In this document: positions 2,784-31,973 of the stretch, piece by piece
Numbering within the stretch: the stretch's first letter is position 1
Layout of the letters: each line of letters begins with the position of its first letter
Made by a program: the position numbers and the translations under genes
Notes under the pieces: model-generated
Told to the model about the DNA's origin: nothing
What the model saw: only the letters and a program-made list of their open reading frames with translations
Database searches by the model: none
Assembly: GCA_025465355.1 (NCBI GenBank)
Contig: JAODNN010000049.1
Location: forward strand, 54,762-86,761
Direction of reading: 5' to 3'
From: Blastococcus sp.
Lineage (GTDB): Bacteria > Actinomycetota > Actinomycetes > Mycobacteriales > Geodermatophilaceae
Length of the DNA: 32,000 nt

Positions 2784-2827
2784 CCCCACCCGGCCACGCG
2801 CGGCCGGACGACGGAAGGAATCTGCAG

Positions 2828-3688
2828 ATGGCGGGACGCGGCACCGGGCCCGATTTCGTGGAAGCCCTGGCGCGGGGGCTCGACGTGCTCGCGTGCTTCG
2901 ACGCCGACCATCGGCGCATGTCCCTGACCGAGGTCGCCGGCGTCGCCGCCCTTCCCCGGCCCACCGCGCGCCGGCTGCTCCTGACTCTCGAGGAGCTCGG
3001 CTTCGTCCGGTCCGCGGGCGGCGCGTTCGAGTTGACGCCGAAGGTGCTCACCCTGGGCATGGCCTACGTCGGCGCGCTCGGGCTGTGGGACATCGCCCGG
3101 CCGCACCTCGAGGCGCTGGTCGCCCGCACCGGTGAGTCCTCGTCCATGGCCCAGCTCGACGGGTCGGACATCGTCTATGTCGCGCGGGTGTCGGTGCCCA
3201 GGATCATCGCGCTCCGGGTCGACATCGGCACCCGGTTCCCGGCCGTCCAGACGTCACAGGGCAAGGTGCTGCTGGCCGCCCTCTCCCCCGACCAGCTCGA
3301 GGCAACCCTCGCCGAGCCGAGTCGGGCGGGGCTTCCCCCCTACATCGGCCGGTCACCCGACCAGCTCCGGGCCGAGCTCACCGAGATCCGGGCGCGCGGC
3401 TGGGCCCTCGCCGACGAGGAGCTGGCGCCGGGAGTGCGCTCGGTCGCCGCTCCGGTGCGGGACGGGGACGGCGCGGTCCGCGCGGCCATGAATGTCACCG
3501 TGCACGCGGCCGAGACGTCGACCGACCGCCTGGTGCACGACCACCTGCCGCTGCTCCTTTGCACCGCCGGCGACATCAGCGCGGAGTGGGCGCTGTGGCA
3601 GAGCCGCCCGCACGTGGAGGTTGCCCGCCAGGGCGTTCACGGCGGTCCCGCGGCAGCGACGAGCACCGGTGGTTCCCGGCGGACCTAG
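2828..3688 (+). CDS. IclR family transcriptional regulator (PcaR/PobR-like)
   Basis: In the frame of track ORF 2234..3688, with ATG at 2828. MAGRGTGPDFVEALARGLDVLACFD...MSLTEVAGVAALPRPTARRLLLTLEELGFV is a wHTH domain. It is followed by an IclR effector domain (GESSSMAQLDGSDIVYVARV...GWALADEELAPGVRSVAAPV). Confidence 0.9.
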   Translation: MAGRGTGPDFVEALARGLDVLACFDADHRRMSLTEVAGVAALPRPTARRLLLTLEELGFVRSAGGAFELTPKVLTLGMAYVGALGLWDIARPHLEALVARTGESSSMAQLDGSDIVYVARVSVPRIIALRVDIGTRFPAVQTSQGKVLLAALSPDQLEATLAEPSRAGLPPYIGRSPDQLRAELTEIRARGWALADEELAPGVRSVAAPVRDGDGAVRAAMNVTVHAAETSTDRLVHDHLPLLLCTAGDISAEWALWQSRPHVEVARQGVHGGPAAATSTGGSRRT

Positions 3689-5032: not shown

Positions 5033-5061
5033 GCCGGACGGTTTCCCCGCGGCGCCCCGTG

Positions 5062-5490
5062 TCAGCGGCGGCGCAGGGCCAGCACCGGGATCGTGCGGAT
5101 GCCGGCCGTCTTCACCTCGTAGTCGGCGAAACCCGGGTTGCGACGGGCCTGCTCGGCGTAGATCCGATCCCGCTCCGCGCCGGTCAGCTCGGTGACCGTC
5201 ACCGGGTACGTCTCGGTGCCGATCTCGACGTCGGCGACGCCGGCCGCCGTGAGGTTGTAGTACCAGTCCGGGTTCGTCGGCGCGCCTCCCTTGGAGGCGA
5301 AGACGTAGATCGTGGCGGGATCGTCGGCGTCCGGCAGGTACATCATCGGGTTCACGAGGTCGCGGCCGCTCCGGCGGCCACGGTGGTGGACCAGCGTCAT
5401 CGGGGCACCGTCGAACGGGCCCCCGACCCTTCCCTCGTTGGCCCGGAACTCCGCCACGATCCTGCCGTTGAAATCGGGTTCCTCGGTCAT
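5062..5490 (-). CDS. Nitroreductase-family deazaflavin (F420)-dependent oxidoreductase, DDN/Rv3547-like
   Basis: Track ORF 5062..5571. The internal ATG at 5490 is preceded by GGGAGGAG. FNGRIVAEFRANEGRVGGPFDGAPMTLVHHRGRRSGR...FASKGGAPTNPDWYYNL...RTIPVLALRR matches the DDN family pattern. Confidence 0.85.
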   Translation of the reverse strand: MTEEPDFNGRIVAEFRANEGRVGGPFDGAPMTLVHHRGRRSGRDLVNPMMYLPDADDPATIYVFASKGGAPTNPDWYYNLTAAGVADVEIGTETYPVTVTELTGAERDRIYAEQARRNPGFADYEVKTAGIRTIPVLALRRR

Positions 5491-7912: not shown

Positions 7913-8770
7913 CTACACGAACAACGGCGCGGCGTCGACCCGTGCGGCGAGTTCGTCCATCTGCGCGCCGGAGGGCCGTTGCTCGAAGCGCTCCGCGGCA
8001 TCGAGCAGGCGCGGCAGGATCTCGACGTCCCCGGTGGTGAGCAGGAACGCCTCCGGGCGGCCGAGCACCCAGTGCACCGCCAGGTCGATGTCCGCCTGCT
8101 CGCGCAGGGGCTCGTACCAGGTCGAGGCCGTGGCGGCGCGCCCGTCCCAGCGACGCCGCGCGAGGCTCTTGATCGTCTGGAGGGCGATGGTGCGGTCGGC
8201 GCAGACGGCGGCCAGCGCCTCGAACGTCCCGGCGTAGCGCTCGTCCTGCATCTGGACGTAGTTGTACGGCGCGAGCACCGAGTCGAAGGCGAAGCGTTCC
8301 AGGCTGCGCCGATGCATCTCGGGCACCGACAGACCGTGTCCGGTGACGCCGATGAAGCGGACGAGGCCCTCTTCGCGGGCCTCGATCGCCGCCTCGAGGG
8401 CGCCGCCCGAGCTCAGTGCGGTGTCCCACTCGATCACGTCGACGAGATTGTGCAGCTGGATCGAGTCGACGTGGTCGACGCCCAGGCGGTCCAGCGAGCG
8501 CCGGATCTCCTCCCGCGCGCCGCGGTAGGTCCGCTCCCCGGTCTTGGTGGCGAGGAAGAACGTCCCGGGGTGGCGGCGGAGCCAAGGTGCGATCCGCAGC
8601 TCGGCGTCGCCGTAGCCGGCGGCGACGTCGATGTGGTTGATGCCGTGCTCCAGCAGCACCTCGAGCGCACGGTCGGCCTCACCCTTGGAGACACTGCCCA
8701 GGGCCCCGGCCCCGAAGATGACGCGGCTGGAGTCGTGACCGGTGGCACCGAACGGCGCGCGTGGGATCAC
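7913..8770 (-). CDS. Aldo/keto reductase family oxidoreductase
   Basis: Track ORF 7913..8833. GTG at 8770 is preceded by [26 protein letters not shown]...[15 protein letters not shown]...[10 protein letters not shown]...VRFIGVTGH is an AKR pattern. Confidence 0.8.
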
Positions 8771-8948: not shown

Positions 8949-9170
8949 GTCACGGACGTTGTGGCGCGGGAGATGGTGCGGCATGGTGTCCGGGTACCGG
9001 ACGATGTCGCCATCGGCGGGTGCGACGACATCGACGTCGCCGTCACCGCCGCGGTGCCGCTCTCGTCGGTGCGAAAGCCACGGTACGAGCTCTTCGAGCC
9101 GCAGCTCGTGGTCCGCGAGTCCAGCATGGTGCGTCGTCGCGGAATTGCCGACGGGAAGGGGGCGCCGTGA
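8949..9170 (+). pseudogene. Remnant of a LacI-family regulator (C-terminal ~70 codons only)
   Basis: The frame opens just after a stop at 8895-8897. It reads ..DVVAREMVRHGVRVPDDVAIGGCDDIDVAVTAAVPLSSVRKPRYELFEPQLVVRESS... This matches the LacI/GalR C-terminal pattern (..G.RVPeDvsvvGfDD...a....PpLTTVrqP..elG....p.LvvReSt). No HTH or N-terminal sugar-binding subdomain is present. Its TGA (9168-9170) overlaps the lutA GTG (9167). Confidence 0.6.
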
Positions 9171-12084: not shown

Positions 12085-14274
12085 TCACTGCCCGGCGACG
12101 CCGACCGGCTGCTTCTCCTCGGCGTGGGGCGCCTCGTCGACCTGCTGGAGGCCGACGCCCTCGACGTCCAGAGTGGGCAGCCAGCGCAACCACCGGGGCA
12201 GCCACCAGGCGCGCTCCCCGAGCAGGGCCAGGGCGGCGGGGACGAGGACCATCCGGACGACGAAGGCGTCGAAGAGGATCCCGGAGGCGAGCGCGAAGGC
12301 GATCGACTTGATGGTGGCCTCTCCGGTCGGCACGAACCCCGCGAAGACCGAGAACATGATCAGCGCCGCAGCGACCACGACCGGAGCCGCCTGCCGGAAG
12401 CCGGTGGCGATGGCCTCCCGCGCTGCGAGGCCGTGGCTGTGCGCCTCGTGCATCCGGGAGACGAGGAACACCTGGTAGTCCATCGCCAGCCCGAACAGGA
12501 TGCCGACCACGAGAATGGGCGTGAGGCTGATCAGCGGGCCGGTGCTGTCGAGGTTGACCGCGCCGCCCAACCACCCCCACTGGAACACCGCGACGGTGGC
12601 GCCGAGCGAGGCGCCGATGGTCAGCAGGAAGCCGAGCACACCGACCAGGGGCACCGGCAGCGAGCGGAACACCAGCACGAGCAGCACCAGCGCGAGGCCC
12701 ACGACGAGAGCCAGGTAGACGGGCAGGGCGCGGTTGAGGGTCGCGGCCACGTCGACGCTGACGGCGGTGCTGCCGGTGACGTAGGCCCGGGCCCCGTCGG
12801 TGTGGGAGAGCTGCGCACGCAGGTCGGTGACGAGCTGCTCGGTCGCCGGGCTGGTGGGGCCGGACTTCGGGACGACGGTGAGCAGGGCGGCGCTGCCGTC
12901 GGCGTTGGGGATCGGGCCGGCGACGACCGCGACGTCGTCCAGCCCGGCGATCGCCCCCTTGACCTGCGTGGCGGTGCCGGGCGCCCCGGCGCCGTCGAAC
13001 AGGACCGTGATCGGGCCGTTGAACCCGGGGCCGAAACCGTCGGCGAGCAACTGCTGGGCCGCGGCCTGCGTGCTGCCCACGGGCGGCGTCTGCTCCAGGG
13101 TGGTCCGCATCGAGAAGAAGGGGACGGCGATCGCGCCCAGGGCGGCCACGGACACGAGCAGCGCCACGACGCGCCGGCGGGTGATCGTCGCGACCCAGCC
13201 GGAGAAGAAGCCACGTGAGGTGTCGGCGCCCCCCGGCTCGGCGGTCAGGCCGGTGCGCTGTTTGCGGGGCAGGGCACGGAGACCGAGGTAGCTCAGTGCC
13301 GCGGGGACGAGGGTGAGGGCGATCAGCACCGCGACGACGACCGTCGCGGCCGCGGCCACGCCCATCTGCGTCAGGAACGGGATGCCGGCGACGAAGAGCC
13401 CGGCGAGGGCGATGACGACGGTGAGGCCGGCGGTGACCACGGCCGAGCCGGCGGTTCCCACGGCGGTGCCGATGGCGGTGCCGATGTCGGAACCGCGCCG
13501 CAGCTCCTGCCGGAACCGGGTGACGATGAACAGGGCGTAGTCGATGCCGACGGCCAGGCCGAGCATCGCGGCCAGGGTGGGGGTGGTCGACGACAGCTCG
13601 GTGAAGCCGGTGGCGATGGTGATGCCCAGGACCCCGATGCCCACGCCGACGACCGCGGTCAGGAGGTTCATGCCGGCGGCGATCAGGGATCCGTACGTGA
13701 CCGCGAGGATGACCAGGGCGACGACGACGCCGATCGCCTCCGCGGGGCCACCGACGTTCGGAGGCGCCGTCACGGCCTCGCCGGTGACCTCCACGGTGAG
13801 TCCGGTGCCGCCGGCGTCGGCGACGGCGGACAGCAGCGCGTCCTGCTGCGCCGCAGGCACCTCGCCCACCCCGGCGGAGTACGTGACCGTGCTGTACGCC
13901 GTGGTCCGGGCGGCGTTGACCGCCGGGGCGGCCCGGTTCAGTGGGTCGCTGGCCGACGTGACGCCGGGCAGCGTGGTCAACGTGGCGACCAGCTTCTCCA
14001 CCGCTGCGGCGTTGGCCGGTGCGGTGAGCGTCTGACCCGTCGGTGCCTGCATCACCACGCGGGCCGTCGCGCCGCCCACTCCGCCGAACTCCGCGGAGAT
14101 CCGCTCCAGCGCGGTGGTCGACTCCTGCCCGGGGATGGAGAAGCTGCTCGAGGTCTTGCCGGACAGCGTGCCTGCGCCGACGCCGGCGCCGATGAGGACG
14201 AGCAGCCAGACGAGGACGACCGCGAGCCGGCGCCGATGGGCGAACGAGCCGAGCCGGAACAACAGACGCGCCAT
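12085..14274 (-). CDS. MMPL family (RND superfamily) membrane transporter
   Basis: Track ORF 12085..14373. ATG at 14274 (MARLLFRLGSFAHRRRLAVVLVWLLVLIGAG) has GGAGG upstream, 6 nt after the TetR stop. The two-fold architecture of periplasmic and TM blocks is typical of MmpL/ActII-3-like exporters. Confidence 0.9.
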   Translation of the reverse strand: MARLLFRLGSFAHRRRLAVVLVWLLVLIGAGVGAGTLSGKTSSSFSIPGQESTTALERISAEFGGVGGATARVVMQAPTGQTLTAPANAAAVEKLVATLTTLPGVTSASDPLNRAAPAVNAARTTAYSTVTYSAGVGEVPAAQQDALLSAVADAGGTGLTVEVTGEAVTAPPNVGGPAEAIGVVVALVILAVTYGSLIAAGMNLLTAVVGVGIGVLGITIATGFTELSSTTPTLAAMLGLAVGIDYALFIVTRFRQELRRGSDIGTAIGTAVGTAGSAVVTAGLTVVIALAGLFVAGIPFLTQMGVAAAATVVVAVLIALTLVPAALSYLGLRALPRKQRTGLTAEPGGADTSRGFFSGWVATITRRRVVALLVSVAALGAIAVPFFSMRTTLEQTPPVGSTQAAAQQLLADGFGPGFNGPITVLFDGAGAPGTATQVKGAIAGLDDVAVVAGPIPNADGSAALLTVVPKSGPTSPATEQLVTDLRAQLSHTDGARAYVTGSTAVSVDVAATLNRALPVYLALVVGLALVLLVLVFRSLPVPLVGVLGFLLTIGASLGATVAVFQWGWLGGAVNLDSTGPLISLTPILVVGILFGLAMDYQVFLVSRMHEAHSHGLAAREAIATGFRQAAPVVVAAALIMFSVFAGFVPTGEATIKSIAFALASGILFDAFVVRMVLVPAALALLGERAWWLPRWLRWLPTLDVEGVGLQQVDEAPHAEEKQPVGVAGQ

Positions 14275-14279
14275 GGTGA

Positions 14280-14894
14280 TCAGGCCTCCACCTGGTCGGA
14301 GTCGGACAGAGCAGCGCCGGGACGGCGGTGGCCGAGCGCGTCGAAGCAGGTGGCGACCACGTACGGCCGCCACTCGGTGATCTGGTCCTGGCGGTGGGCC
14401 GCAAGGGTCAGCACGGCCAGCGCGGAGAGGGCACCGACCACCCGCACGGTTCGCTGCGGGTCGGTGGTGCCGAAGTCGACGCCGAAGGCCTGCAGCGCAT
14501 CGACGGCGACGGAGACCGGCTCGCCGTCGCCCTCGCCGGCATCGGCGCCGACGTCGGTGACCGGCGCGAGCATCAGGGCCACGACTCCCGGGTGCGCCAG
14601 GGCGACATCGACGAGGACCTCGATGGCCCGCCGGTCACGTTCGGCGCCGAGCGGCAGGTGACGAACCTGGTCGAGCGCCCGCTGCCCGAGGGTCCTCGCC
14701 TGCGCGAGCACGGCCTCGTGCAGTGCCCCCTTGCTGGGGAAGTGATGCAGCAGCCCCGCCTTCGACAGGCCGACGGCGTCCGCGACGTCCTGCACCGATG
14801 TCTTCGCGAACCCGCGGTGGGCGAAGAGCGCCGCCGCACGATCGAGGATCCCCTCGTCGATCTGCTGACGGAACGCGCGAGCCATGCCGGTCAC
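14280..14894 (-). CDS. TetR/AcrR family transcriptional regulator
   Basis: ILDRAAALFAHRGFAKTSVQDVADAVGLSKAGLLHHFPSK is a TetR HTH. The start is GTG at 14894 or ATG at 14885. It lies immediately upstream of, and co-oriented with, the MMPL gene. Confidence 0.9.
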   Translation of the reverse strand: MTGMARAFRQQIDEGILDRAAALFAHRGFAKTSVQDVADAVGLSKAGLLHHFPSKGALHEAVLAQARTLGQRALDQVRHLPLGAERDRRAIEVLVDVALAHPGVVALMLAPVTDVGADAGEGDGEPVSVAVDALQAFGVDFGTTDPQRTVRVVGALSALAVLTLAAHRQDQITEWRPYVVATCFDALGHRRPGAALSDSDQVEA

Positions 14895-22019: not shown

Positions 22020-22790
22020 TCACCCGAGCAGCACCGGCACGGCAGAGCGGTTCTCCCGATCGTTGACTATGGCCAGGTGCCGTTCGGTGTACCGGCGCAA
22101 CCGGCCGACCTGTGCCGGCGTGATCCGGTCGCAGACCCACTCCCAGTGCAGGGACACCCAGTCGCCGGGTTCCAAGGCGCCGACCATGCCGACGCCGTCG
22201 ACCGACCGCACGACCGACTCGGTCTCCGCCGGCCCGAGGCTCAAGGAGATGCCGTCCCAGGTGAGCGGCTGACTGGACACGACGACCTGGTCGCCTTGGA
22301 CCGTCAGGACCTCCCCCCACCGGATCCGGCACCGGTCCAGCACGGCCAGCGCGTGCGGGGCCTTGCGCCGGTCGGTCAGCAGGCCGGTGTAGGGGTAGAT
22401 GCAGAAGACGGCGAAGCTGTGGTGCGGCACTCCGCCGGCAAGGACTCCCTCGGTGATGCTCGGGAACCGCGCACCGGTCATGAACCGGAACCGCTCCTCC
22501 ATGGAGTTCCCGACCGAGCGGGTACCGACCCGGTCCAGCCGCGAACTGCCGATCCAGTACGCCTCGACGACCCGGCGGTCCAGGGGATCGGACACGCCGG
22601 TGGCGCCCGCGATCAGCTCCAGGTAGGGCCATGCCCCGGCGAACTGCCGGGCCATCGCACGCAGCCCGCCGTCGTCGACCCCGGCGACGCCGTACTCGAA
22701 GAACCCGCCGTGGTCGGGCGGTCCGCAGAACCCGTGCGCATTGGGCGGGAAGGCGTAGCGCGCGAACAGGACGGGGCCGGGAACGGTCAC
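22020..22790 (-). CDS. Conserved hypothetical protein of actinobacterial hydrogenase loci (recalled as DUF6390-like; unverified)
   Basis: In the frame of track ORF 22020..23054. The GTG at 22790 overlaps the hypC TGA (GTGA). It begins VTVPGPVLFARYAFPPNAHGFCGPPDHGGFFEYG and is the last gene of the minus-strand hydrogenase string. Confidence 0.65.
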   Translation of the reverse strand: MTVPGPVLFARYAFPPNAHGFCGPPDHGGFFEYGVAGVDDGGLRAMARQFAGAWPYLELIAGATGVSDPLDRRVVEAYWIGSSRLDRVGTRSVGNSMEERFRFMTGARFPSITEGVLAGGVPHHSFAVFCIYPYTGLLTDRRKAPHALAVLDRCRIRWGEVLTVQGDQVVVSSQPLTWDGISLSLGPAETESVVRSVDGVGMVGALEPGDWVSLHWEWVCDRITPAQVGRLRRYTERHLAIVNDRENRSAVPVLLG

Positions 22791-23056
22791 GGGCCCGACT
22801 CCGGCTCGTCGGCGGCCGCGTCGCCGCGCGACCGGCCCATCAGCTCCAGGCCGCTCATCGCCCGCTCCCCGCCGGCCTCGTCGGTCAGCTCGACGGCGAA
22901 GCCCATGTGGATCAGCACCCACTGGCCCGGCTCCGGTGGCTCGTCCAGCAGGCCGATGTTCACCTTGCGGACGGCGCCCTCGACGTCGACGAGCGCGAGC
23001 TGGTCGCCGTAGCCCGGCAGTATCTCCACCACGCGTCCCGGGATCCCGAGGCACAT
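22787..23056 (-). CDS. hypC: Hydrogenase assembly chaperone HypC/HupF family
   Basis: MCLGIPGRVVEI...ALVDVEGAVRKVNIGLL...GQWVLIHMGFAV, with the N-terminal MCLGIP motif and its essential Cys2. Confidence 0.9.
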   Translation of the reverse strand: MCLGIPGRVVEILPGYGDQLALVDVEGAVRKVNIGLLDEPPEPGQWVLIHMGFAVELTDEAGGERAMSGLELMGRSRGDAAADEPESGP

Positions 23057-23057
23057 C

Positions 23058-23555
23058 TCAGCTCACCTCCACCGGCTGCAGCCGGCCGGACACAAGGGTG
23101 CGCACGGCGCGCACCGCCTCGTCGACGGCCGCCTGGACCGGCGCCGTGAGCCCCATGCCGTCGCCGGTCTCGGTGACCTGACAGCCGACCAGCAGGGTGC
23201 GCGGGGGGAGGTGGCCACCCAGCGCCGCGAGGGTGGCCAGCACGGTAGCGGGATCCATGCCGTGCGCATCGACCCCGGCACCCCCGCCGACGTGCTCCGG
23301 ACCGATCTCGATCAGCTCGACGGCGCCCGGGGAGCCGCGATCGGGCAGGGCGTCGACCAGGACCAACGCGTCCCACGGTTCCAGCAGGTCGTAGGCCAGG
23401 TGCATCCCCCGGATGCCGTAGTCGACCACGCGGACGCCGTCCGGCAGCGCCGACCCGGCCAGCCGCCGGGCCGCCTCGCAGCCGAAGCCGTCGTCGCTCT
23501 GGAAGACGTTCCCGATCCCGGCCACCAGGATGCGGGGCGCCCCGGCGTCGGCCAC
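23058..23555 (-). CDS. hupD: [NiFe]-hydrogenase maturation endopeptidase (HupD/HyaD/HybD family)
   Basis: ILVAGIGNVFQSDDGFGCEAARRL...VVDYG..G..LAYDL...ALVLVDA...DAHGMDP matches the family pattern. GTG start at 23555, directly after the stop of the upstream ORF. Confidence 0.85.
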   Translation of the reverse strand: MADAGAPRILVAGIGNVFQSDDGFGCEAARRLAGSALPDGVRVVDYGIRGMHLAYDLLEPWDALVLVDALPDRGSPGAVELIEIGPEHVGGGAGVDAHGMDPATVLATLAALGGHLPPRTLLVGCQVTETGDGMGLTAPVQAAVDEAVRAVRTLVSGRLQPVEVS

Positions 23556-23771
23556 CTAGGCCCCGCCTTCCTCGCCGCGGGGCGTGTCCTCCGGCTCCGG
23601 GGCGCTCCGCTCGTCGCTCTCGACAGGTCCCGTCGCGCCGCCGACGTTCGCACCCTCCCGGCGGACGTCGTCCTCGCCGTCGACGTCCGCGCTCTCCCGG
23701 CGCCCCTCGTAGGGCGGAACGGTCTTTCCCTCGAAGTCGGCGGGCCCGGGCCCACCCGGTGACGTGGTCAT
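23556..23771 (-). CDS. Hypothetical small acidic, low-complexity protein (71 aa)
   Basis: ATG at 23771 with GGGGAG upstream, and high GC3. 18 of 71 residues are Asp/Glu and there is no hydrophobic core. The stop abuts the hupD start. Confidence 0.45.
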   Translation of the reverse strand: MTTSPGGPGPADFEGKTVPPYEGRRESADVDGEDDVRREGANVGGATGPVESDERSAPEPEDTPRGEEGGA

Positions 23772-23812: not shown

Positions 23813-24037
23813 TCAGCCGGCCTGGTCGCCGGTCGGCAGGTGCGGTGCCCCGGAGTGCCGCGCACCCTCGGCGTCGACGGTCGTGTCGCTGTCCTCGCTC
23901 GCGGTTCCGGCCGGTCGGTCGACAGGGCCACCGCCGGGCTCATCCGACCCGGTGTCCCGCGACCCGGGAGCTCCCCGTGCCTCCTGCGGCTCCGGCTGCA
24001 GGTGGTCGGCCGGGCCGGTGCCGTCGTTGCTGTCCAC
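23813..24037 (-). CDS. Hypothetical small acidic, low-complexity protein (74 aa)
   Basis: GTG at 24037 with GGAGGA 6 nt upstream. 15 of 74 residues are Asp/Glu and the protein is Gly/Pro-rich. It shares an N-terminal G-x-GPAD motif with the 71-aa neighbour. Confidence 0.4.
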   Translation of the reverse strand: MDSNDGTGPADHLQPEPQEARGAPGSRDTGSDEPGGGPVDRPAGTASEDSDTTVDAEGARHSGAPHLPTGDQAG

Positions 24038-24094: not shown

Positions 24095-24214
24095 CTACAT
24101 CCGGCGGATCTCCAGATAGCGCTTGATGTCCGGAATCGAACGGACGCCGAGCACGACCGCCCCGGCGAAGGCCGTCAGTCCGAGCACGGTGGTGAGCATG
24201 CCGATCGCCCTCAT
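24095..24214 (-). CDS. 39-aa single-pass membrane micro-protein
   Basis: The ATG at 24214 overlaps the TGA of the upstream 457-aa ORF (ATGA), with GAGGAG upstream. MRAIGMLTTVLGLTAFAGAVVLGVRSIPDIKRYLEIRRM is one roughly 22-residue hydrophobic helix plus a basic tail. Confidence 0.55.
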   Translation of the reverse strand: MRAIGMLTTVLGLTAFAGAVVLGVRSIPDIKRYLEIRRM

Positions 24215-25584
24215 GTCGGGCTCTCCTCTCGTCGGTCGGCGTCTTCGGCCTCCGGCAGCGGTTCGAGCTCGTCGGGGGCGAAGTAGAGGTAGCGGCCGTA
24301 CCAGTCGTGGAACTCGGCGGCGGGGTCGTCGACCAGGGTGACGGCGACGTGCGTCCCGCCGTCCAGGTCGACGTGCACGCCGCTCACCCGCGCCTCGAGG
24401 CCGGCGACGAACATGTCCTGGGCATCCGCGCGCCGCGACGGGCGCAGCCGCACCCGGCTGCCCCGGCTCACCCGGCGGCCGCTGACGACGACGGAGTCGG
24501 TCTCCGGCGACACCGGAGCCGCTGCCTCGGCGGCCCACCAGTCGTCGCCGGTGAGCGCGGCCGTCGCGGCGTGCGGGTCGCGCATGATGCCGTGCAGTCG
24601 CTGCAGATCCTCGGGCGACATCTGCTCGCAGCGGTCGATGATCGCGGCCGCGCGCGCATCGGTCCCCCGGGCCTGAGCCTTCTCCTCATCGGTCAGCGTC
24701 AGCACCCGAAGGGTGAGGATCTCGTCGATCTCGGTGGCGTCGAACATCGCAACGGTGCTCTCCGGAGCCACCGCCGGGTGGTCGTACAGGATGATCGGGG
24801 CGGCCAGGACGACGTCCGAGGTCTGCCCGTCCGGGCCGCCGTCGCCGGCGAGCACGGGCCAGCAGCGGTGCTGACGACAGCGGCCCGCTGCGTCGGCGGC
24901 ATCGTCCGGTGGGTCGATGACGGACACGAACCGCGCCCGGCCGGCCGCGAGGATCAGGTGCGCCCCGATCAGCGACCGGATGGTCGCGGGGTCCTTCTCC
25001 GTCACCGGGTCGGCCGTGTTCGCGACGCTCACCCGCAGCCGCACCAGTCCGCCGTCGTCCTCGGTGCGCAGCGTCACGAGCGCGCTCAACGGCTCACGGC
25101 GGCGCACGAGCCGTCCACCGGGCACGGCCTCGACGTCGTCACCGCCGTCGACGGCCACGTGCAGGACCCGGTCGCCGCGCAGCTCGCGCAGGCAGAACGT
25201 CCCGAGATCGCGCTCGACCTCGACGGCCTCGTCCCAGCCGATCCACGACGACGTGCCGTCCCGGAGCTCGTCGACGGCGGCGTAGCCACCGTCGACGACC
25301 GCCCGCTCCACCGAACGGCGCTGCAGCTGCAGGAACCGCAGGTGCACCGTCACCGTGGCCGCGCCGTCGCCCGGGTCGACCGGTCGCAGCAGGCACTCGA
25401 CAGCCAGGTCGGCCGGCTCCCCGACGCCGGCGCCCGCCGCACCCGGTGGGCCGAGGATCCCGAACTGCCAGCGCACCTGGTTCTTGGCCGCCGTCGACCG
25501 GTAGGGATAGAGCAGGTACCCCTCGTAGAGCACGGCGTCGGCGGCGCGCCGGGCATGGGCGAGACAGCCGGTGGCGAGCGTCAT
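24211..25584 (-). CDS. Conserved hypothetical protein, 457 aa (hydrogenase-locus associated)
   Basis: In the frame of track ORF 24211..26544. The ATG at 25584 overlaps the upstream TGA (ATGA). It begins MTLATGCLAHARRAADAVLYEGYLLYPYRSTAAKNQVRWQFGILGP. I recognise no catalytic motif. Confidence 0.7.
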   Translation of the reverse strand: MTLATGCLAHARRAADAVLYEGYLLYPYRSTAAKNQVRWQFGILGPPGAAGAGVGEPADLAVECLLRPVDPGDGAATVTVHLRFLQLQRRSVERAVVDGGYAAVDELRDGTSSWIGWDEAVEVERDLGTFCLRELRGDRVLHVAVDGGDDVEAVPGGRLVRRREPLSALVTLRTEDDGGLVRLRVSVANTADPVTEKDPATIRSLIGAHLILAAGRARFVSVIDPPDDAADAAGRCRQHRCWPVLAGDGGPDGQTSDVVLAAPIILYDHPAVAPESTVAMFDATEIDEILTLRVLTLTDEEKAQARGTDARAAAIIDRCEQMSPEDLQRLHGIMRDPHAATAALTGDDWWAAEAAAPVSPETDSVVVSGRRVSRGSRVRLRPSRRADAQDMFVAGLEARVSGVHVDLDGGTHVAVTLVDDPAAEFHDWYGRYLYFAPDELEPLPEAEDADRREESPT

Positions 25585-26228
25585 GAGCGCTCCCCCGCCG
25601 AAGCCTGTGCCAGCAGCGTCGTCACGGCGTCGTCCCAGCTGGTCAGTCCCCGGACGTGCCGGTAGTGCGCGAGGGCGTCCACCGTGTCGCGGTGCATCCG
25701 CAGCCACTCCGTACCCGGGAAGTTCGTCTCCATGAGGTCCCGCCACACCGCGACCGGCATCCGGTACCGGGCCTCGGCGTCCCAGGGCACCTGCGTGACG
25801 GAGAAGCCTGTCCTCCCACGGCTGAACACGGTGCCGCTGAACAGGAAGAGCAACGGGATCTCGCCGTCCCTCAGGGCGTGCAGGTACGTCGTGCCCGACA
25901 CCTCGAAGTCGTAGGTGCACGGGATCGGCAGGTCGAACTCGGTCGATCCGGTGAACCCTTGGGCCACGGTCGAGGCGTGCAGCCACGCGAACGGCCTGAG
26001 GGTCTGGGCGAAGCGGGTCCGGTCGCCGAACAGGTCGAGCAGCGCCTGTTCCTCGGTGTCGTCGTAGCGGCGGCGCTGCGGCTCGATCCGGATCTGCGCC
26101 CGCAGGGCCAGGGCGTGCACCGCCTCTCCGCCGGCTTCCTCCACCCGGAGTCTGGCCAGGAGGGTGGGCGCGACGGAGTACGGCTCGGGTGCGACGCCGA
26201 CGACGGTGAACGACAGCTCGGGGGTCAT
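25581..26228 (-). CDS. Conserved hypothetical protein, 215 aa (recalled as DUF6084-like; unverified)
   Basis: In the frame of track ORF 25581..26789. The ATG at 26228 overlaps the upstream TGA (ATGA). It begins MTPELSFTVVGVAPEPYSVAPTLLARLRVEE. Confidence 0.7.
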   Translation of the reverse strand: MTPELSFTVVGVAPEPYSVAPTLLARLRVEEAGGEAVHALALRAQIRIEPQRRRYDDTEEQALLDLFGDRTRFAQTLRPFAWLHASTVAQGFTGSTEFDLPIPCTYDFEVSGTTYLHALRDGEIPLLFLFSGTVFSRGRTGFSVTQVPWDAEARYRMPVAVWRDLMETNFPGTEWLRMHRDTVDALAHYRHVRGLTSWDDAVTTLLAQASAGERS

Positions 26229-26887
26229 GGCCCCACCCCGCCGCCGACCGGAACGCTGCGCGCCGCCAGGTCGGCGAAGAACCCGTCGAGCAGCTCCCGC
26301 GCCTCCTGGCCGCCGTCGAAACCGCGCCAGGCGAGCCGGAGCGCCCCGACCAGCTCGTAACAGCGGTCGATCGGCACCAGGTGGCACGCCGCGGGGGCGC
26401 CCCTCCCGTCCGGCATCCGGACGATCCACGCCTCGACGTCGGGAGCCAGCGTCCCCAGCACCGGGTTGGCGGCGACGATGGAATCCCACACGCCCAGCGG
26501 CAGCTCGGACTCCGTGGCCCCGGCGGGTCCGGGATAGAAGGCAACGGTCCGCCCCAGCACCGAGTTCACGAAGAAGAACGCCAGCCCGACCGGTATCTCC
26601 AGCTCGTCCCACTGGCCGGGGGAGAACGGCACGCCGGGAAAGGACAGGTAGCGGTCGGGCACCGCCCGGTACCTCAGTTCGGCGTCGCCGGCGGTGAAGA
26701 GCAGGTAGCAGGGGCGGCACGTGCACATCAGGCCGCGCCCGACGACGTCGACGACGTGCTGGTGCTGCTCGGCGATGTCCTCGGCGCACATCTCGCAGCG
26801 CTCCCGGGCGCTGGGCACCGGCCGCGAGGCCCGCACCCGCGCGAGCACCTCCAGCGGGTTGACCGGTCCGGACCGCGCGGCGGTCAT
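26225..26887 (-). CDS. Conserved hypothetical Cys-motif protein, 220 aa (recalled as DUF5947-like; unverified)
   Basis: The ATG at 26887 overlaps the hhyE TGA (ATGA). The N-terminal segment CEMCAEDIAEQHQHVVDVVGRGLMCTCRPC contains CxxC plus CxCxxC. Confidence 0.7.
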   Translation of the reverse strand: MTAARSGPVNPLEVLARVRASRPVPSARERCEMCAEDIAEQHQHVVDVVGRGLMCTCRPCYLLFTAGDAELRYRAVPDRYLSFPGVPFSPGQWDELEIPVGLAFFFVNSVLGRTVAFYPGPAGATESELPLGVWDSIVAANPVLGTLAPDVEAWIVRMPDGRGAPAACHLVPIDRCYELVGALRLAWRGFDGGQEARELLDGFFADLAARSVPVGGGVGP

Positions 26888-27810
26888 GCGCTCACGGCCC
26901 CCGGCAGGGCCACCGTGACCACGCCGTCGGTGACCAGCAGCGGAACGGGGTCGAGGTGGTCGCCGGTCCCGTCGAGCCCCCGGCCGGCCTGCCGGACGTC
27001 GAAGTGCGCGGAGCAGGTCCGACAGGTCAGGACGGCGTCACCGGGCCGCCCGCCCAGGCGCCGCGCGAGAACGCCGTCGGCGAGGCCCCCGCCGCACACC
27101 GGGCAGCGGTCCAGGTAGGCGAACAGGTCTGAACCGACACGGGCGCCGACGAGGGCCGTGCCGTCGACCGAGAACGTGCCGAGCTGACCCGGCGCCAGCC
27201 CGTCGAGCCCGTCGACCGTCGTCCACCCGCTCGGGGCAGCGGCGCGTGCGGGCGCGGCGCCTCCTTCGAGGCGCGAACGGAGCGCCGTCACCGGGATGAC
27301 CGAGCCGGTTCGCGGGGCCGGCGCGGCCTCCTCCACCTCGATCCCGTTCACCTCGGGCGCGGCCGCCTGGATCGCGGCCTCGACCGCGAACGTGAGGGTG
27401 ACCGAGGAGGAGGGACACCCGTCGCAGCTGCCCAGCATTCGCAGGCGCACCACACCCTCCCCGGTCACGCCGAGGAGCTCGACATCACCACCGTGCGAGC
27501 CGAGGTAGGGCCGGACGCCGTCCAGGGCGCGCGCCACCCGCGTCTCGACCGCGTCGGGATGCAGCCCGTGCACGGCGAGGATGCCGGCGACGAGGGCGTC
27601 CCCGGCGAGCCGGTCCAGCAGGACGTCGTCGAGCCGGCCGCATTCGTCCACGATCTCCAGCAGCCGCTCCACGCCGGCGCCGTAGAGGTCCACCACGAGC
27701 CGCACCAGTTCCTCGGCCCGCTCGCGCGCCACCCGGCCCCCGGTAGACGCCGCCTCGAGCAGCACTTCGATGCGTTCCCCGGTGGCCTGGAGATCGGGTT
27801 CCGACGTCAT
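26884..27810 (-). CDS. hhyE: NifU-like / Rieske-fold-like iron-sulfur protein of group 1h hydrogenase loci (HhyE-type)
   Basis: Track ORF 26884..27930, ATG at 27810. The NifU C-terminal-type domain reads VRPYLGSHGGDVELLGV..GVVRLRMLGSCDGCPSSSVTL. The C-terminal segment FAYLDRCPVCGGGL...LTCRTCSAHFDVRQAG has Rieske-like topology. Confidence 0.75.
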   Translation of the reverse strand: MTSEPDLQATGERIEVLLEAASTGGRVARERAEELVRLVVDLYGAGVERLLEIVDECGRLDDVLLDRLAGDALVAGILAVHGLHPDAVETRVARALDGVRPYLGSHGGDVELLGVTGEGVVRLRMLGSCDGCPSSSVTLTFAVEAAIQAAAPEVNGIEVEEAAPAPRTGSVIPVTALRSRLEGGAAPARAAAPSGWTTVDGLDGLAPGQLGTFSVDGTALVGARVGSDLFAYLDRCPVCGGGLADGVLARRLGGRPGDAVLTCRTCSAHFDVRQAGRGLDGTGDHLDPVPLLVTDGVVTVALPGAVSA

Positions 27811-27848: not shown

Positions 27849-29639
27849 TCACTCGCCGGTGACCGACTGGGTGGGCGAGTGGGTCACCTCCAGGGTCTTC
27901 CCGTTCCCGAGGTACATGTGCACACCGCACGGCAGACAGGGGTCGAAGCTGCGCACCGTGCGCATGATGTCGATGCCCTTGAAGTGCTCGCGGTCGTTCT
28001 CCTCGAAGATCGGCTGCCCCTGAACCGCGTCCTCATAGGGGCCCGGCGTGCCGTAGCTGTCCCGCGGGCTCGCGTTCCACGGCGTCGGCGGGTAGGGGTG
28101 GTAGTTCGCGATCTTGCCGTCCCGGATGACCATGTGGTGGCTGAGCACTCCGCGGACGGCCTCGGTGAATCCGCAGCCGATGCCCTCGTCGGGAACCTCG
28201 AAGGACTCCCACGTCTTGGTCCGACCGGCCTTGATCTCGGTCAGCGCCTTCTCCGCGAAGTGCAGCGCGCACGCGGCCGCGTAGGCCTGGAAGTAGGTGC
28301 GCGCCCGGTTGCGCTCGATCGTGTTGCTCCACTGCGGGATTTTCCACTCGAAGCTCACCGGGCCCTTGAGCGCCGTCTTGGGCAGGTTGATCTGCACGCT
28401 GCTGCCGGTGGCCTTGACGTAGCCGATGTCGACCAGGTTCGCCAGCGCCGTCGACCAGAGCCGGGCCAGCGGCCCACCACCGGTGTCGAGGGCCAGATAG
28501 TCCTGCCCGTCGTACCACCGCGGGCTCATCACCCAGGTGTACTTCTCGTCGAGGTCGCGCTTCTGCGGCCGCGGGTTGGTGTGCTGGTTCCACGGGTGGC
28601 GGACATCGACGGGATTGCCGAGGGGATCGCGCGTGACGAAGACCTCCTGGCCGACCCAGTCCTCGTAGTACGAGGAGCCGAGCAGGATGCGGATGCCGAG
28701 GTTGATCTTCACCAGGTCGGTGGTGATCAGCTTGCCGTCGACGACGACGCCGGGGGTCACGTACATCTTGCGACCCCACTGGGTCATGTCCCGGTAGTCG
28801 AAGTTGCAGTACTCCGGGTCCTGGAAGGACCCCCAGCAGCCCAGAAGGATCCGTCGGTTGCCGACCTGCTCGTATCCGGGGAGCGCCACGTAGAAGAAGT
28901 CGAAGAGGTCGTCGTGCATCGGCACGACCTTCTTCATGAACTCGACGTAGCGCATGAGCCGGGTCAGGTAGTCGGTCATGAGCTGGATGGTCGCCACGGT
29001 GCCCACGCCGCCCGGATACAGCGTCGAGGGGTGGACGTGCCGCCCCTCCATGAGGCAGAACATCTCGCGGGTCAGGCGGCTGACCTGCAGGGCCTCGCGG
29101 TAGAACTCGCCGGTGAACGGGTTCAGCGACCGCATGATGTCGCCGATCGTCCGGTACCCGTGGGCCTCGGCGTGCGGGGCCTCGGTCCGGTTGGCCTGCT
29201 CCAGCACGCGGGGATTGGTCTCGGCGACCATCTTCTCGCAGTAGTCGACCCCCACCAGGTTCTCCTGGAAGATGTTGTGGTCGAACATGTACTCGGCCGC
29301 CTCGCCGAGGTTGACGATCCACTCCCCCAGGTGCGGCGGCTTCACGCCGTAGGCCATGTTCTGCGCGTAGCAGGAGCAGGTGGCGTGGTTGTCCCCGCAG
29401 ATCCCGCAGATGCGGCTGGTGATGAAGTGCGCGTCGCGGGGGTCCTTGCCCTTCATGAAGATCGAGTAGCCACGGAAGATCGACGACGTGCTCTTGCACT
29501 CGACGACCTCCCGGGCATCGAAGTCGATCTTGGTGTAGATGCCCAGGCTGCCCACGATCCGGGTGATCGGGTCCCAGGCCATGTCGACCAGGTTGCCGGT
29601 GGGTGTGGAACCGGTCCTGCGGGTTTCGGTCGCGGTCAT
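27849..29639 (-). CDS. hhyL: [NiFe]-hydrogenase large subunit, group 1h/5 (high-affinity, actinobacterial type)
   Basis: The 596-aa product carries the N-terminal Ni-binding motif TSRICGICGDNH and the C-terminal SFDPCLPCGVH. A 22-aa tail (MYLGNGKTLEVTHSPTQSVTGE) follows, consistent with endopeptidase processing. Confidence 0.95.
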   Translation of the reverse strand: MTATETRRTGSTPTGNLVDMAWDPITRIVGSLGIYTKIDFDAREVVECKSTSSIFRGYSIFMKGKDPRDAHFITSRICGICGDNHATCSCYAQNMAYGVKPPHLGEWIVNLGEAAEYMFDHNIFQENLVGVDYCEKMVAETNPRVLEQANRTEAPHAEAHGYRTIGDIMRSLNPFTGEFYREALQVSRLTREMFCLMEGRHVHPSTLYPGGVGTVATIQLMTDYLTRLMRYVEFMKKVVPMHDDLFDFFYVALPGYEQVGNRRILLGCWGSFQDPEYCNFDYRDMTQWGRKMYVTPGVVVDGKLITTDLVKINLGIRILLGSSYYEDWVGQEVFVTRDPLGNPVDVRHPWNQHTNPRPQKRDLDEKYTWVMSPRWYDGQDYLALDTGGGPLARLWSTALANLVDIGYVKATGSSVQINLPKTALKGPVSFEWKIPQWSNTIERNRARTYFQAYAAACALHFAEKALTEIKAGRTKTWESFEVPDEGIGCGFTEAVRGVLSHHMVIRDGKIANYHPYPPTPWNASPRDSYGTPGPYEDAVQGQPIFEENDREHFKGIDIMRTVRSFDPCLPCGVHMYLGNGKTLEVTHSPTQSVTGE

Positions 29640-29649
29640 GGTGTGCTCC

Positions 29650-30747
29650 TCACCAGGTCCGGCTCGCGCCGGTCACGAGCTCGCGGCCCGGCCTGCGCCA
29701 CTTGGGTTCCTTGTCGACCGTGTGCGTCGTGATCGTGCGCAGCCGCCGGATCGCGGCGCCATAGGCGCCCACCGCCGTCGTCGAGAGCTTGCCGCCCGGC
29801 GGCTCGTCCATGAACGGCATGAACTTGTCGGGGAAGCCGGGCATCGTGCAGCCGATGCAGATGCCCCCGACGTTCGGACAGCCGCCCACGCCGTTGATCC
29901 AGCCGCGCTTGGGCACGTTGCACTTCACGACCGGGCCCCAGCAGCCGAGCTTGACGATGCACTTGGGCGAGCCGTACTCGGTCGCGAAGTCACCCTGCTC
30001 GTAGTAGCCGGCCCGGTCGCAGCCCTCGTGCACGGTGCGCCCGAACAACCAGGTCGGGCGGAGCGCCTCGTCCAGCGGGATCATCGGGGCCTGGTCGGTG
30101 GCCATGTACAGCAGGTACGTCAAGGTCTCCGACAGGTTGTCCGGCTGGATGGGACAGCCGGGGACGCACACGATCGGGATACCGGCCTTCGACTTCCAGT
30201 CCCAGCCCAGGTAGTCGGGCACGCCCATCGCGCCGGTGGGGTTACCTGCCATGGCGTGGATACCGCCGTAGGTGGCGCAGGTACCGGCGGCCACGATCGC
30301 CGTCGCCTTGGGGGCCAGCCGGTCGAGCCATTCACTGGTCGTCATCGGCTGCCCCGTCGCCGGGTCGTTGCCGAAGCCGCACCAGTAGCCCTCGTCCTTG
30401 ATCTTCTCGTTCGGGATGGATCCCTCGACCACGAGGACGAACGGTTCGAGCTCGCCCCGGTCGGCCTTGAAGAACCATTCGAGGAAGTCGTCAGCGCCCC
30501 CGTTGGGACCGCACTCGAAGTCGATCAGCGGCCAGTGGACGGCGACTCGAGGCAACCCCGGGAGTGCGCCGAGGGCGATCTCCTCGATGCTGGGCTGGGT
30601 GGCCGCGGTGAGGGCCACGGAGTCGCCGTCGCAGCTGAGTCCGGCGTTGATCCACAGCACGTGGATCAAGACATCCTCGGCCGCGCGGGCGGCCTCTCGA
30701 GTAGACGCGGACGACATTTCGCCACGCTTCCCGGGGTCCCTGCTCAC
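29650..30747 (-). CDS. hhyS: [NiFe]-hydrogenase small subunit, group 1h/5
   Basis: HVLWINAGLSCDGDSVALTAA...AAGTCATYGGI...VPGCP...GCDRAGYY...KLGCWGPVVKCNVP...CPNVGGICIGC are Fe-S cluster motifs. There is no twin-arginine signal. The start is uncertain: GTG at 30747 (longest ORF) or ATG at 30717. Confidence 0.9.
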   Translation of the reverse strand: MSRDPGKRGEMSSASTREAARAAEDVLIHVLWINAGLSCDGDSVALTAATQPSIEEIALGALPGLPRVAVHWPLIDFECGPNGGADDFLEWFFKADRGELEPFVLVVEGSIPNEKIKDEGYWCGFGNDPATGQPMTTSEWLDRLAPKATAIVAAGTCATYGGIHAMAGNPTGAMGVPDYLGWDWKSKAGIPIVCVPGCPIQPDNLSETLTYLLYMATDQAPMIPLDEALRPTWLFGRTVHEGCDRAGYYEQGDFATEYGSPKCIVKLGCWGPVVKCNVPKRGWINGVGGCPNVGGICIGCTMPGFPDKFMPFMDEPPGGKLSTTAVGAYGAAIRRLRTITTHTVDKEPKWRRPGRELVTGASRTW

Positions 30748-30859: not shown

Positions 30860-31615
30860 TCAGACCGCGGCAGGCTCACGCGTCAGTAGCCACTCACTCC
30901 ACGCGTCCATCCCCTCGCCCGTCGTCACCGACAGCGGAAGGATCCGGACCCCTGCGTTCACCGAGCGGCAGTGCGCGACGAGCTGCGCCAACTGCACGTC
31001 CACGTACGGCAGCAGGTCGATCTTGTTGATGACGACGACGTCGGCCACCGAGAACATGTACGGGTACTTGAGCGGCTTGTCCTCCCCCTCGGTGACCGAG
31101 ACGACGACGACCCTGGCGGCCTCCCCGAGGTCGAACAGGGCCGGGCACACGAGGTTCCCGACGTTCTCGACGAAGACCAGCGATCCCGGCGGCGGGGCGA
31201 GCTCGGTCAGACCCCTCGCCAGCATGTCGGCGTCCAGGTGGCAACCGGAGCCGGTGTTGATCTGCACGACGGGCACGCCGGTGCCGCGGATCTTGTCGGC
31301 GTCGATCCGCGTCTCCTGATCGCCCTCGATCACCGCGACCGGCCGGCTGGGCGCGAGCTCGGTGATGGTGCGGCGAAGCAGCGACGTCTTCCCCGAACCC
31401 GGCGAGCTCATCAGGTTCAGCGCGACGATGCCTCGCTCGGCCAGCCAGGCGCGGTTGTGACCGGCAAGGTGGTCGTTCTTGGCCAGCAGCGCCGTCTCGA
31501 TGTCGACGACGGCGGCAACCGGCTCGTGTGCGTGCGGGTGGCCCCGCGCATGGGGGTGGCCTGCCACCCCCTCCACCCGGACGTCGGACTCCCCGCACCC
31601 GCATGTTCCGCACAC
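30860..31615 (-). CDS. hypB: Hydrogenase nickel-incorporation GTPase HypB
   Basis: N-terminal MCGTCGCG (CxxCGC Ni site) and His-rich GHPHARGHPHAH. The G-domain reads SSPGSGKTSLL...ENVGNLVCPA...INKIDL. GTG start with GAGGTGG upstream. Confidence 0.95.
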   Translation of the reverse strand: MCGTCGCGESDVRVEGVAGHPHARGHPHAHEPVAAVVDIETALLAKNDHLAGHNRAWLAERGIVALNLMSSPGSGKTSLLRRTITELAPSRPVAVIEGDQETRIDADKIRGTGVPVVQINTGSGCHLDADMLARGLTELAPPPGSLVFVENVGNLVCPALFDLGEAARVVVVSVTEGEDKPLKYPYMFSVADVVVINKIDLLPYVDVQLAQLVAHCRSVNAGVRILPLSVTTGEGMDAWSEWLLTREPAAV

Positions 31616-31631
31616 GTGCGACCACCTCTTC

Positions 31632-31973
31632 TCAGCGGGCCGGCTCGGCGAGCACCACGGCGGCGACCGCCAGCTCCCGGCCGGCCACGACCTCGACGTC
31701 CGCGCTGCCGCAGGGGCACAGCAGGATCAGGTCGGCGAGCACGAACTCCTCGCCACAGGAACGGCAGCGGGCCCGGCCCTCCGGCTGCTCGAACTCGAGT
31801 GTCGCGCCTTCGAGTGGGGTTCCCGCCGTCACCAGCTCGAAGCAGAACCGCATCGCGTCGGGCACCACGCCGGCCAGCCGGCCGACCCGCAGCCGGACGC
31901 TGGCCACGGGCGCATCCCCCGTGCGCTCGGTGACCGCGTCGACCACGCCCTGGGTGATCCCGAGTTCGTGCAT
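31632..31973 (-). CDS. hypA: Hydrogenase nickel metallochaperone HypA
   Basis: MHELGITQGVVDAV carries the MHE Ni-binding N-terminus. The zinc site is CRSCGEEF...CPCGS. The product is 113 aa. Confidence 0.9.
   Translation of the reverse strand: MHELGITQGVVDAVTERTGDAPVASVRLRVGRLAGVVPDAMRFCFELVTAGTPLEGATLEFEQPEGRARCRSCGEEFVLADLILLCPCGSADVEVVAGRELAVAAVVLAEPAR

Follow-up and report, generated by a model that had tools for sequence, protein, structure and literature searches.

Overlapping genes downstream of hhyL in a Blastococcus genome belong to a conserved accessory gene set of group 1h [NiFe]-hydrogenase clusters

Much of the biological uptake of atmospheric H2 is due to group 1h (Hhy-type) [NiFe]-hydrogenases, on which soil bacteria draw during dormancy. 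Here we describe the 1h hydrogenase locus in a 32,000-nt stretch of a Blastococcus sp. genome (GenBank assembly GCA_025465355.1, contig JAODNN010000049.1, positions 54,762 to 86,761; hereafter the window), where a string of five overlapping genes follows hhyL, the gene for the large subunit. Such genes are obvious candidates for explaining how the 1h enzyme is built in air and wired to the membrane or respiratory chain, and missing accessory genes could limit the yield of O2-insensitive hydrogenases in other hosts. A first-pass annotation had proposed that the five products form an undescribed accessory complex of the hydrogenase, serving electron relay, membrane docking or O2-protected assembly. 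We find that the string belongs to a conserved accessory gene set of group 1h clusters, which we tentatively read as, most likely, an Hhy-specific assembly or maturation module.

The closest described system is the cluster for the actinobacterial-type hydrogenase (AH), the 1h enzyme of Cupriavidus necator H16, on megaplasmid pHG1, in which the same order is found: small subunit, large subunit, NifU-like protein, DUF5947 protein, DUF6084 protein, a ~470-aa protein and a maturation protease. PHG066-069 of this cluster have been described as four open reading frames (ORFs) of unknown function, and PHG066 and PHG067 rank within the top 50 C. necator genes in data on induction of the cluster. The pHG1 genes likewise overlap, by 4 or 8 nt. 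The two clusters differ in that PHG066 (192 aa) has neither the NifU CxxC motif nor a C-terminal Cys4 domain, the protease gene directly follows and overlaps the 476-aa gene, and there is no transmembrane microprotein.

In Mycobacterium smegmatis, whose Hhy is known here through the literature, HhyE (MSMEG_2718) is followed by MSMEG_2717, and other mycobacterial loci share both the gene order and the microprotein of the Blastococcus locus. HhyE is required for Hhy-dependent H2 oxidation (Islam et al. 2019). The same authors took the structural operon to be only MSMEG_2722-2718, noted that MSMEG_2717 is a homolog of PHG067, a "proposed electron acceptor", and left open both electron-transfer and maturation roles. 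In Thermomicrobium roseum, three "conserved hypothetical proteins" downstream of hhyLS are induced in stationary phase, with a 5.5-fold rise, and a 2026 comparative-genomics paper treats these genes as hypothetical and knows of no subunit that anchors the 1h enzyme in the membrane. The 1h cluster of Methylacidiphilum fumariolicum SolV was published as hhyS-hhyL-hupD with no ORFs between (PMC5364354); if it is true that the SolV genome lacks the DUF5947, DUF6084 and 450-aa genes, these are dispensable for a working 1h enzyme. We rejected the "hha" names as labels for the string ORFs, since in that paper they are aliases of hyp genes.

Contrary to the first-pass annotation, the set is not undescribed: it matches PHG066-069, MSMEG_2717 and the T. 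roseum genes. Because it is annotated on pHG1 and noted in earlier 1h papers, our finding is the rediscovery of a recognised gene set, and the locus is an ordinary new example of a catalogued, functionally unsolved one. Its interest lies in that open question and in the concrete handles on it (invariant ligands, natural fusions and a microprotein), not in the novelty of the locus.

Enzyme-specific accessory proteins are familiar from group 1d hydrogenases, where HoxL/O/Q/R/T/V of the Ralstonia eutropha membrane-bound hydrogenase and HyaE/HyaF of Escherichia coli are needed for assembly in air. The likeness to the 1h clusters is one of arrangement, with enzyme-specific accessory genes beside the endopeptidase (the rubredoxin example in Islam et al.). 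No relation in sequence or fold was detected, Pfam returning only DUF families, and the 1h enzyme lacks the twin-arginine translocation (Tat) signal on which HoxO and HoxQ act; a search of the HhyS translation for a twin-arginine signal (RRxF motif) found none. The cytochrome b subunits HyaC/HoxZ, and HucM, occupy the same slot or serve the same need, that of giving a soluble catalytic dimer access to the quinone pool. The cytochrome b subunits are multi-pass, haem-binding proteins, whereas the operon in the window has only a 39-aa hydrophobic peptide.

The core of the Blastococcus locus is as follows, in the order of transcription:

29650-30747, minus strand, hhyS, the 1h small subunit (Pfam NiFe_hyd_SSU_C and Oxidored_q6)
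27849-29639, minus strand, hhyL, the group 1h [NiFe]-hydrogenase large subunit (L1 and L2 motifs in the translation)
26884-27810, minus strand, hhyE, 308 aa (Pfam NifU)
26225-26887, minus strand, DUF5947 protein, 220 aa (Pfam PF19372)
25581-26228, minus strand, DUF6084 protein, 215 aa (Pfam PF19562)
24211-25584, minus strand, 457-aa protein, a PHG069 homolog without a Pfam family
24095-24214, minus strand, DUF6893 microprotein, 39 aa (Pfam PF21833)
23058-23555, minus strand, maturation endopeptidase of the HycI/HupD family (Pfam HycI)

The translation of hhyL contains TSRICGICGDNH (L1) and SFDPCLPCGVH (L2) verbatim, both quoted as group 1h signatures (PMC5364354), so that, judged by these motifs, the large subunit upstream of the string is a genuine group 1h HhyL, as the first-pass annotation had it. 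The hhyE start lies 38 nt beyond the hhyL stop. The four ATGA overlaps that had been read from the sequence are present on the minus strand at exactly the positions given (26884-26887, 26225-26228, 25581-25584 and 24211-24214), the TGA stop of each upstream gene sharing letters with the ATG of the next, and the product lengths also agree. The GC content at third codon positions (GC3), 0.90-0.94 in a window of 72% GC, supports all five frames as coding. The closest relatives are found in Blastococcus and Modestobacter (Geodermatophilaceae).

A genome scan seeded with the 457-aa protein returned more than 584 matching stretches, at one genome per species, of which the best 80 were analysed; all of these were labelled actinobacterial except one metagenome-assembled genome (Candidatus Sericytochromatia). 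A metagenome scan, led by a C. necator-type homolog as seed, contributed 80 loci of mostly lower GC (0.54-0.66). DUF6084, DUF5947 and HhyL are adjacent wherever the contig extends far enough, and shortfalls among the genome loci reflect contig ends. In the genome loci, adjacency held for DUF6084 in 79/80, DUF5947 in 77, hhyE in 75 and hhyL in 73; in the metagenome loci it held for DUF6084 in 60/61 and DUF5947 in 51/52, with hhyL at most 5 kb upstream in 26/30 and the protease gene immediately downstream of the 457-aa gene in 57/57. The HhyL proteins beside homologous accessory sets were 71-97% identical to that of the window. On plasmids, the 13 that carry a 1h-type HhyL (at least 71% identity) are exactly the same 13 that carry a homolog of the 457-aa protein, and that homolog occurs in none (0/82) of the plasmids carrying other [NiFe] large subunits. 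Co-occurrence with group 1h hhyL, which the first-pass annotation had named as a check on its proposal, is therefore strongly positive, and the set is restricted to 1h clusters.

The overlaps recur as well. In actinobacterial loci, NTGA overlaps join hhyE to DUF5947 (58/75), DUF5947 to DUF6084 (64/77) and DUF6084 to the 457-aa gene (76/79). In the broader set, hhyE and DUF5947 are mostly separated by a gap (NTGA in 6/46) and DUF5947 and DUF6084 usually share a longer overlap (49/60), while NTGA overlaps join DUF6084 to the 457-aa gene in 55/76 and, in 55/68, the 457-aa gene to that of the protease (4 nt). Overlaps of 4 or 8 nt are also seen in proteobacterial clusters and in those on Streptomyces plasmids. 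Because these overlaps are conserved in other genomes, and only 19% of TGA triplets across the window are preceded by an A, they go beyond chance. They are not specific to the five genes, since the 457-aa and protease genes overlap too and hypC is likewise joined to the DUF6390 gene by a 4-nt overlap (GTGA) in the window. Unbroken ATGA coupling is for this reason a weak sign of the fixed subunit stoichiometry for which it had been taken.

Rearranged loci show how the string is divided. In five loci a DUF5947-DUF6084-457aa-protease block lies upstream of hhyS-hhyL, and in three of these the HhyE-type gene stands apart from the block, downstream of hhyL-hypB-hypA. The order DUF5947-DUF6084-457aa is itself invariant across phyla. 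The arrangement with a NifU-like gene ahead of it, beside 1h hhyL and the endopeptidase gene, is shared by pHG1, by plasmids of Methylocystis, Streptomyces and Mycobacterium, and by about 150 other loci. Together with the overlap pattern, the rearranged loci resolve the string into three parts: HhyE; a trio made up of DUF5947, DUF6084 and the 457-aa protein; and a membrane microprotein whose place varies. The trio is inherited with the protease that matures the large subunit, and usually coupled to it in translation, rather than being tied to hhyS and hhyL. The single five-gene unit originally proposed does not survive this comparison: the trio moves with the protease, HhyE can be elsewhere and the microprotein shifts position. 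The observation behind the proposal was correct, then, and its interpretation is partly supported.

Within the trio, DUF5947 stands out. The 220-aa protein matches PF19372 end to end (239.5 bits, 2e-71; cut-off 25 bits), and combines an N-terminus rich in Cys and His with a C-terminal alpha/beta domain. Conservation was counted over 115-151 sequences pooled per family; eight DUF5947 residues (C31, C34, H42, H44, C55, C57, C60 and C176) are invariant in 125/125, marking this protein, on residue conservation, as the universal metal-binding candidate of the set. An AlphaFold2 model (predicted local distance difference test, pLDDT, 67.7) is confident only over residues ~80-216 and leaves the Cys-rich N-terminus unplaced; searched with Foldseek, it gave nothing below E 0.1 and no significant PDB match.

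Natural fusions connect DUF5947 to its neighbours. An exhaustive profile search yielded 2,207 DUF5947 representatives at 50% clustering, and among the best 150 some 20 are extended at the N-terminus by a long stretch. A NifU-like::DUF5947 fusion was confirmed in 4/6 long representatives tested, from several lineages. One such fusion is identical in two independent assemblies (ENA and JGI), and in both it is overlapped by 1 nt by the upstream gene and by 4 nt by the downstream DUF6084 gene; the longer contig confirms hhyL upstream and a homolog of the 457-aa protein after DUF6084. These fusions argue that HhyE and DUF5947 act together. DUF5947::DUF6084 fusions are rare (one complete and three partial; 1/137 loci), and artefacts could be among them.

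HhyE begins with a helical region that carries a conserved LHP motif, continues with a NifU-like domain and ends in a C-terminal CxxC...CxxC domain. The description of HhyE as "NifU/Rieske-like" holds for its first half: the match to Pfam NifU (PF01106) scores 78.1 bits against a cut-off of 27, with the C129/C132 CxxC present, and the central domain matches solved Nfu domains and Pfam NifU at 1e-9 to 1e-14. The Rieske half does not hold, since the C-terminal cysteines C236, C239, C263 and C266 (CPVC...CRTC) form a CxxC...CxxC and not a CxH...CxxH pattern. A Rieske [2Fe-2S] identity was accordingly dropped; there is no Pfam match to Rieske, only a weak zinc-ribbon similarity (E 0.015-0.14). Compared with the NfuA/NifU Fe-S carriers, HhyE shares the NifU domain, but it scores only 29-39 bits against the NCBIfam NfuA/NifU equivalogs (cut-offs 268-273) and the CxxC is lost in many lineages, so that, by profile score, it has a NifU-like domain but is not an NfuA or NifU ortholog. 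Pooling 115 homologs leaves three near-universal residues, H84 of the LHP motif, D71 and R91, whereas each cysteine occurs in 63-91% of them. The HhyE-type proteins of C. necator, Methylocystis and most non-actinobacterial loci have neither the NifU CxxC nor the C-terminal Cys4 domain. With the cysteines missing in so many lineages, HhyE cannot be a universal Fe-S relay.

The other two members of the trio offer fewer leads. The 215-aa protein is a clear DUF6084 member (PF19562; 311.8 bits, 3e-93; cut-off 25 bits) in which C104 is conserved in 99% of sequences. Residue 44 is Ala here and Cys in at least 90% of a diverse alignment (LRAQIRIEP against the consensus LRCQVRIEP). The 457-aa protein, for whose family we also write 450-aa protein, has more than 7,900 database homologs, every one labelled "hypothetical", and H209, C236 and H331 are 100% invariant in 151 sequences. 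Its AlphaFold2 model (pLDDT 72.6) comprises a confident beta-rich core (45-250), a helical region and an SH3-like C-terminal barrel, for which Foldseek searches of PDB and BFVD gave only SH3/BAH/PetP-like matches. The segments conserved best, residues 15-46 and 263-296, are those that the monomer model leaves unplaced, as surfaces that bind a partner would be expected to be.

A likeness of the 457-aa protein to DrmA (Foldseek E 1e-6) was set aside, as the TM score was 0.25 and sequence support was lacking. Phage_TAC_7 (PF10109, cut-off 25 bits) scored 21.7 bits against the full-length protein and 25.5 against the helical segment ~281-331 alone; this borderline similarity recurs in 7/27 homologs (E<=0.01) with no PHROG match, and we do not rely on it. 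Single-sequence and profile searches with diverse alignments found no PDB relative of DUF5947, DUF6084 or the 457-aa protein, and hhalign found these families unrelated to one another and to HhyE. The Pfam searches suggested by the first-pass annotation thus assigned three DUF families and NifU, leaving the 457-aa protein without a family; its statement that the four proteins downstream of HhyE have no assigned function stands, Pfam offering only DUF names, NCBIfam nothing and PDB no relative.

The last gene of the string encodes a DUF6893 microprotein (PF21833; 58.2 bits, 8e-16; cut-off 24.6 bits), which has a single transmembrane helix and ends in a basic tail, SIPDIKRYLEIRRM-stop. Its hydropathy maximum is 2.06, and it is the only product of the operon to pass a hydropathy of 1.7. 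A cytochrome b-type membrane subunit was looked for and rejected, as the operon has no multi-pass protein, haem-binding motif or Pfam match of that kind. Across lineages, a motif scan recovered the tail as S-x-PD-x-x-RY-x-x-x-R-x-M-stop, with PDxxRYxxxRxM invariant, on an ORF of ~33-40 aa, finding more members than tblastn, which understates the conservation. In 77/79 actinobacterial loci the microprotein gene comes next after that of the 457-aa protein. In 23/47 non-actinobacterial loci the protease gene is closely followed by one for a single-pass protein of 33-93 aa that ends in the same tail; the pHG1 and Methylocystis clusters have no such gene. On the Streptomyces fungicidicus plasmid it follows the protease gene (~8990-9110, by a relaxed motif scan), and on the Mycobacterium intracellulare plasmid its ORF is at 29218-29337. 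Both copies are missing from the gene tables of these plasmid records, which suggests a systematic under-annotation of the family, although gaps in the PLSDB tables are known.

The M. intracellulare plasmid also has a second DUF6893 paralog (63 aa, 7.8e-12) at 8332-8523, beside phosphoribulokinase and fructose-bisphosphatase genes; a complete nuo operon lies in the 21 kb that separate it from the hhy cluster. Because of this paralog, DUF6893 is not strictly tied to the slot after the 457-aa gene.

In M. smegmatis, Hhy has been found only in membrane fractions and resists 5% cholate, with no known transmembrane region, and the C. necator AH, whose cluster lacks the microprotein, has been described as cytoplasmic. 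The pairing is suggestive, as a correlation across two organisms only. That DUF6893 is the membrane anchor of Hhy, its cytoplasmic tail docking the enzyme (possibly via the SH3-like domain of the 450-aa protein), with the trio forming a new quinone-coupling module and having no part in maturation, is a proposal that we consider unlikely. A candidate association between the microprotein and Cys-rich HhyE was also discarded: it reaches a Fisher p of 6e-5 overall but vanishes or reverses within the non-actinobacterial set, and is for that reason purely phylogenetic.

From the gene content, linkage, coupling, conservation and natural fusions observed across these loci, we infer the following roles for HhyE, the trio and the microprotein. 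HhyE and the trio would form an Hhy-specific assembly machine that works in air beside the general Hyp proteins. DUF5947 would bind a metal or Fe-S cluster via its eight invariant Cys/His residues and work directly with its NifU-like partner, while DUF6084 and the 450-aa protein may act as a scaffold or chaperone for the subunit precursor around proteolytic maturation; none of the four would be a stable subunit of the finished enzyme. The membrane microprotein would be a separate add-on, tethering the enzyme or an assembly intermediate in the lineages that have it. We favour this assembly reading because the trio is tied to the endopeptidase and DUF5947 is found fused to a NifU-like carrier. 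The related Huc enzyme points the same way: purified Huc consists of HucS, HucL and HucM only, with HucE, the HhyE homolog, never mentioned, and when the Huc group reviewed the field in 2023, the HucE/HhyE paper was their reference for "additional assembly and maturation proteins". Of the accessory roles originally put forward, O2-protected assembly is therefore the favoured one, and an Fe-S relay via HhyE cannot be universal.

Several points weigh against an assembly role. In classical group 1 operons (hya/hox/hup), the slot between the large subunit and the protease is filled by the cytochrome b electron acceptor, so the positional argument cuts both ways. No family or fold similarity to a known maturation factor was found in Pfam, NCBIfam or Foldseek searches. 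Papers of 2019 and 2026 give both the electron acceptor or respiratory path of Hhy and its membrane anchor as unknown, and published genetic tests reach HhyE only. Islam et al. report co-localisation of HhyE with HhyL and HhyS on native gels, and HhyE or PHG067 was put forward as an electron acceptor by them and by Schafer et al. These points feed an alternative that is possible, if doubtful, in which the string is an electron-transfer and membrane-coupling module, with DUF5947, and HhyE where it has cysteines, carrying Fe-S centres that take electrons from HhyS, the 450-aa protein or DUF6084 handling quinone and the microprotein serving as anchor. The eight invariant Cys/His residues of DUF5947 and the NifU CxxC and Cys4 domain of the window's HhyE would suit such a relay, as would the requirement for HhyE in H2 oxidation and its reported co-localisation with HhyLS; a conserved single-pass membrane protein encoded in the cluster would likewise suit a membrane-only, cholate-resistant Hhy in M. 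smegmatis and its absence a cytoplasmic AH in C. necator. Yet the relevant cysteines are missing from the HhyE-type proteins of C. necator, of Methylocystis and of most loci outside the actinobacteria, a cofactor motif is lacking in DUF6084 and in the 457-aa protein, and the trio segregates with the protease and not with hhyS/hhyL. Moreover, the microprotein is not correlated with Cys-rich HhyE once phylogeny is set aside, and Huc reduces quinone without HucE.

Two further explanations give the products less to do with one another, or with building the enzyme. That the genes encode co-transcribed but independent factors which form no complex, their overlaps reflecting the compact architecture of a high-GC operon, is compatible with the frequency of 4-nt overlaps and their reach into unrelated neighbours (hypC to DUF6390, the 457-aa gene to the protease gene), with the lack of relatedness among the three families and with the variable positions of HhyE and the microprotein. 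The invariant DUF5947-DUF6084-457aa order across phyla, the HhyE::DUF5947 and rare DUF5947::DUF6084 fusions and the highly conserved segments left unplaced in the monomer model make it improbable. We hold it quite improbable, too, that the set protects or stabilises the enzyme in dormancy (by O2 protection, storage or Fe-S repair) and neither builds nor wires it. Hhy is most active in long-term persistence, the cluster, hypothetical genes included, is induced in stationary phase or carbon limitation (T. roseum, C. necator), and a NifU-like partner with a metal-binding DUF5947 would fit cluster repair, but the induction merely follows that of the structural genes. Biogenesis fits better than protection because the genes are tightly coupled to that of the endopeptidase, which acts once, during maturation.

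The rest of the operon comprises:

31632-31973, minus strand, hypA
30860-31615, minus strand, hypB
23813-24037, minus strand, small acidic Gly/Pro-rich ORF, 74 aa (high GC3, no Pfam family)
23556-23771, minus strand, small acidic Gly/Pro-rich ORF, 71 aa (high GC3, no Pfam family)
22787-23056, minus strand, hypC (Pfam HupF_HypC)
22020-22790, minus strand, DUF6390 gene (PF19927, 4e-92)

From hypA to the DUF6390 gene the locus forms one compact minus-strand operon, whose end converges on an ABC-transporter gene; the remainder of the window is unrelated. Scans for promoters and terminators did no better than on shuffled control sequences. The 74-aa and 71-aa acidic ORFs lie between the microprotein and the protease and have tblastn matches in 17/80 and 11/80 genome loci, respectively; because so few loci carry them, they may be lineage-specific disordered proteins. 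DUF6390 is another hydrogenase-cluster family without an assigned function, found directly after hypC in few related loci. Elsewhere in the window, an F420H2-dependent quinone reductase family protein (PF04075; 5062-5571, minus strand) has no evident hydrogenase link, and an MMPL transporter with a TetR regulator (12085-14894) has no evident tie to the hydrogenase operon. Finally, the 1h small subunit is annotated as "hydrogenase expression protein HypE" in all four plasmid records, at 2155-3243 (S. fungicidicus), 34684-35739 (M. intracellulare), and 4196-5251 and 4287-5366 (the other two plasmids). This looks like a propagated misannotation, and a 2026 Rhodococcus equi paper has remarked on the same HypE mislabelling of the 1h small subunit.

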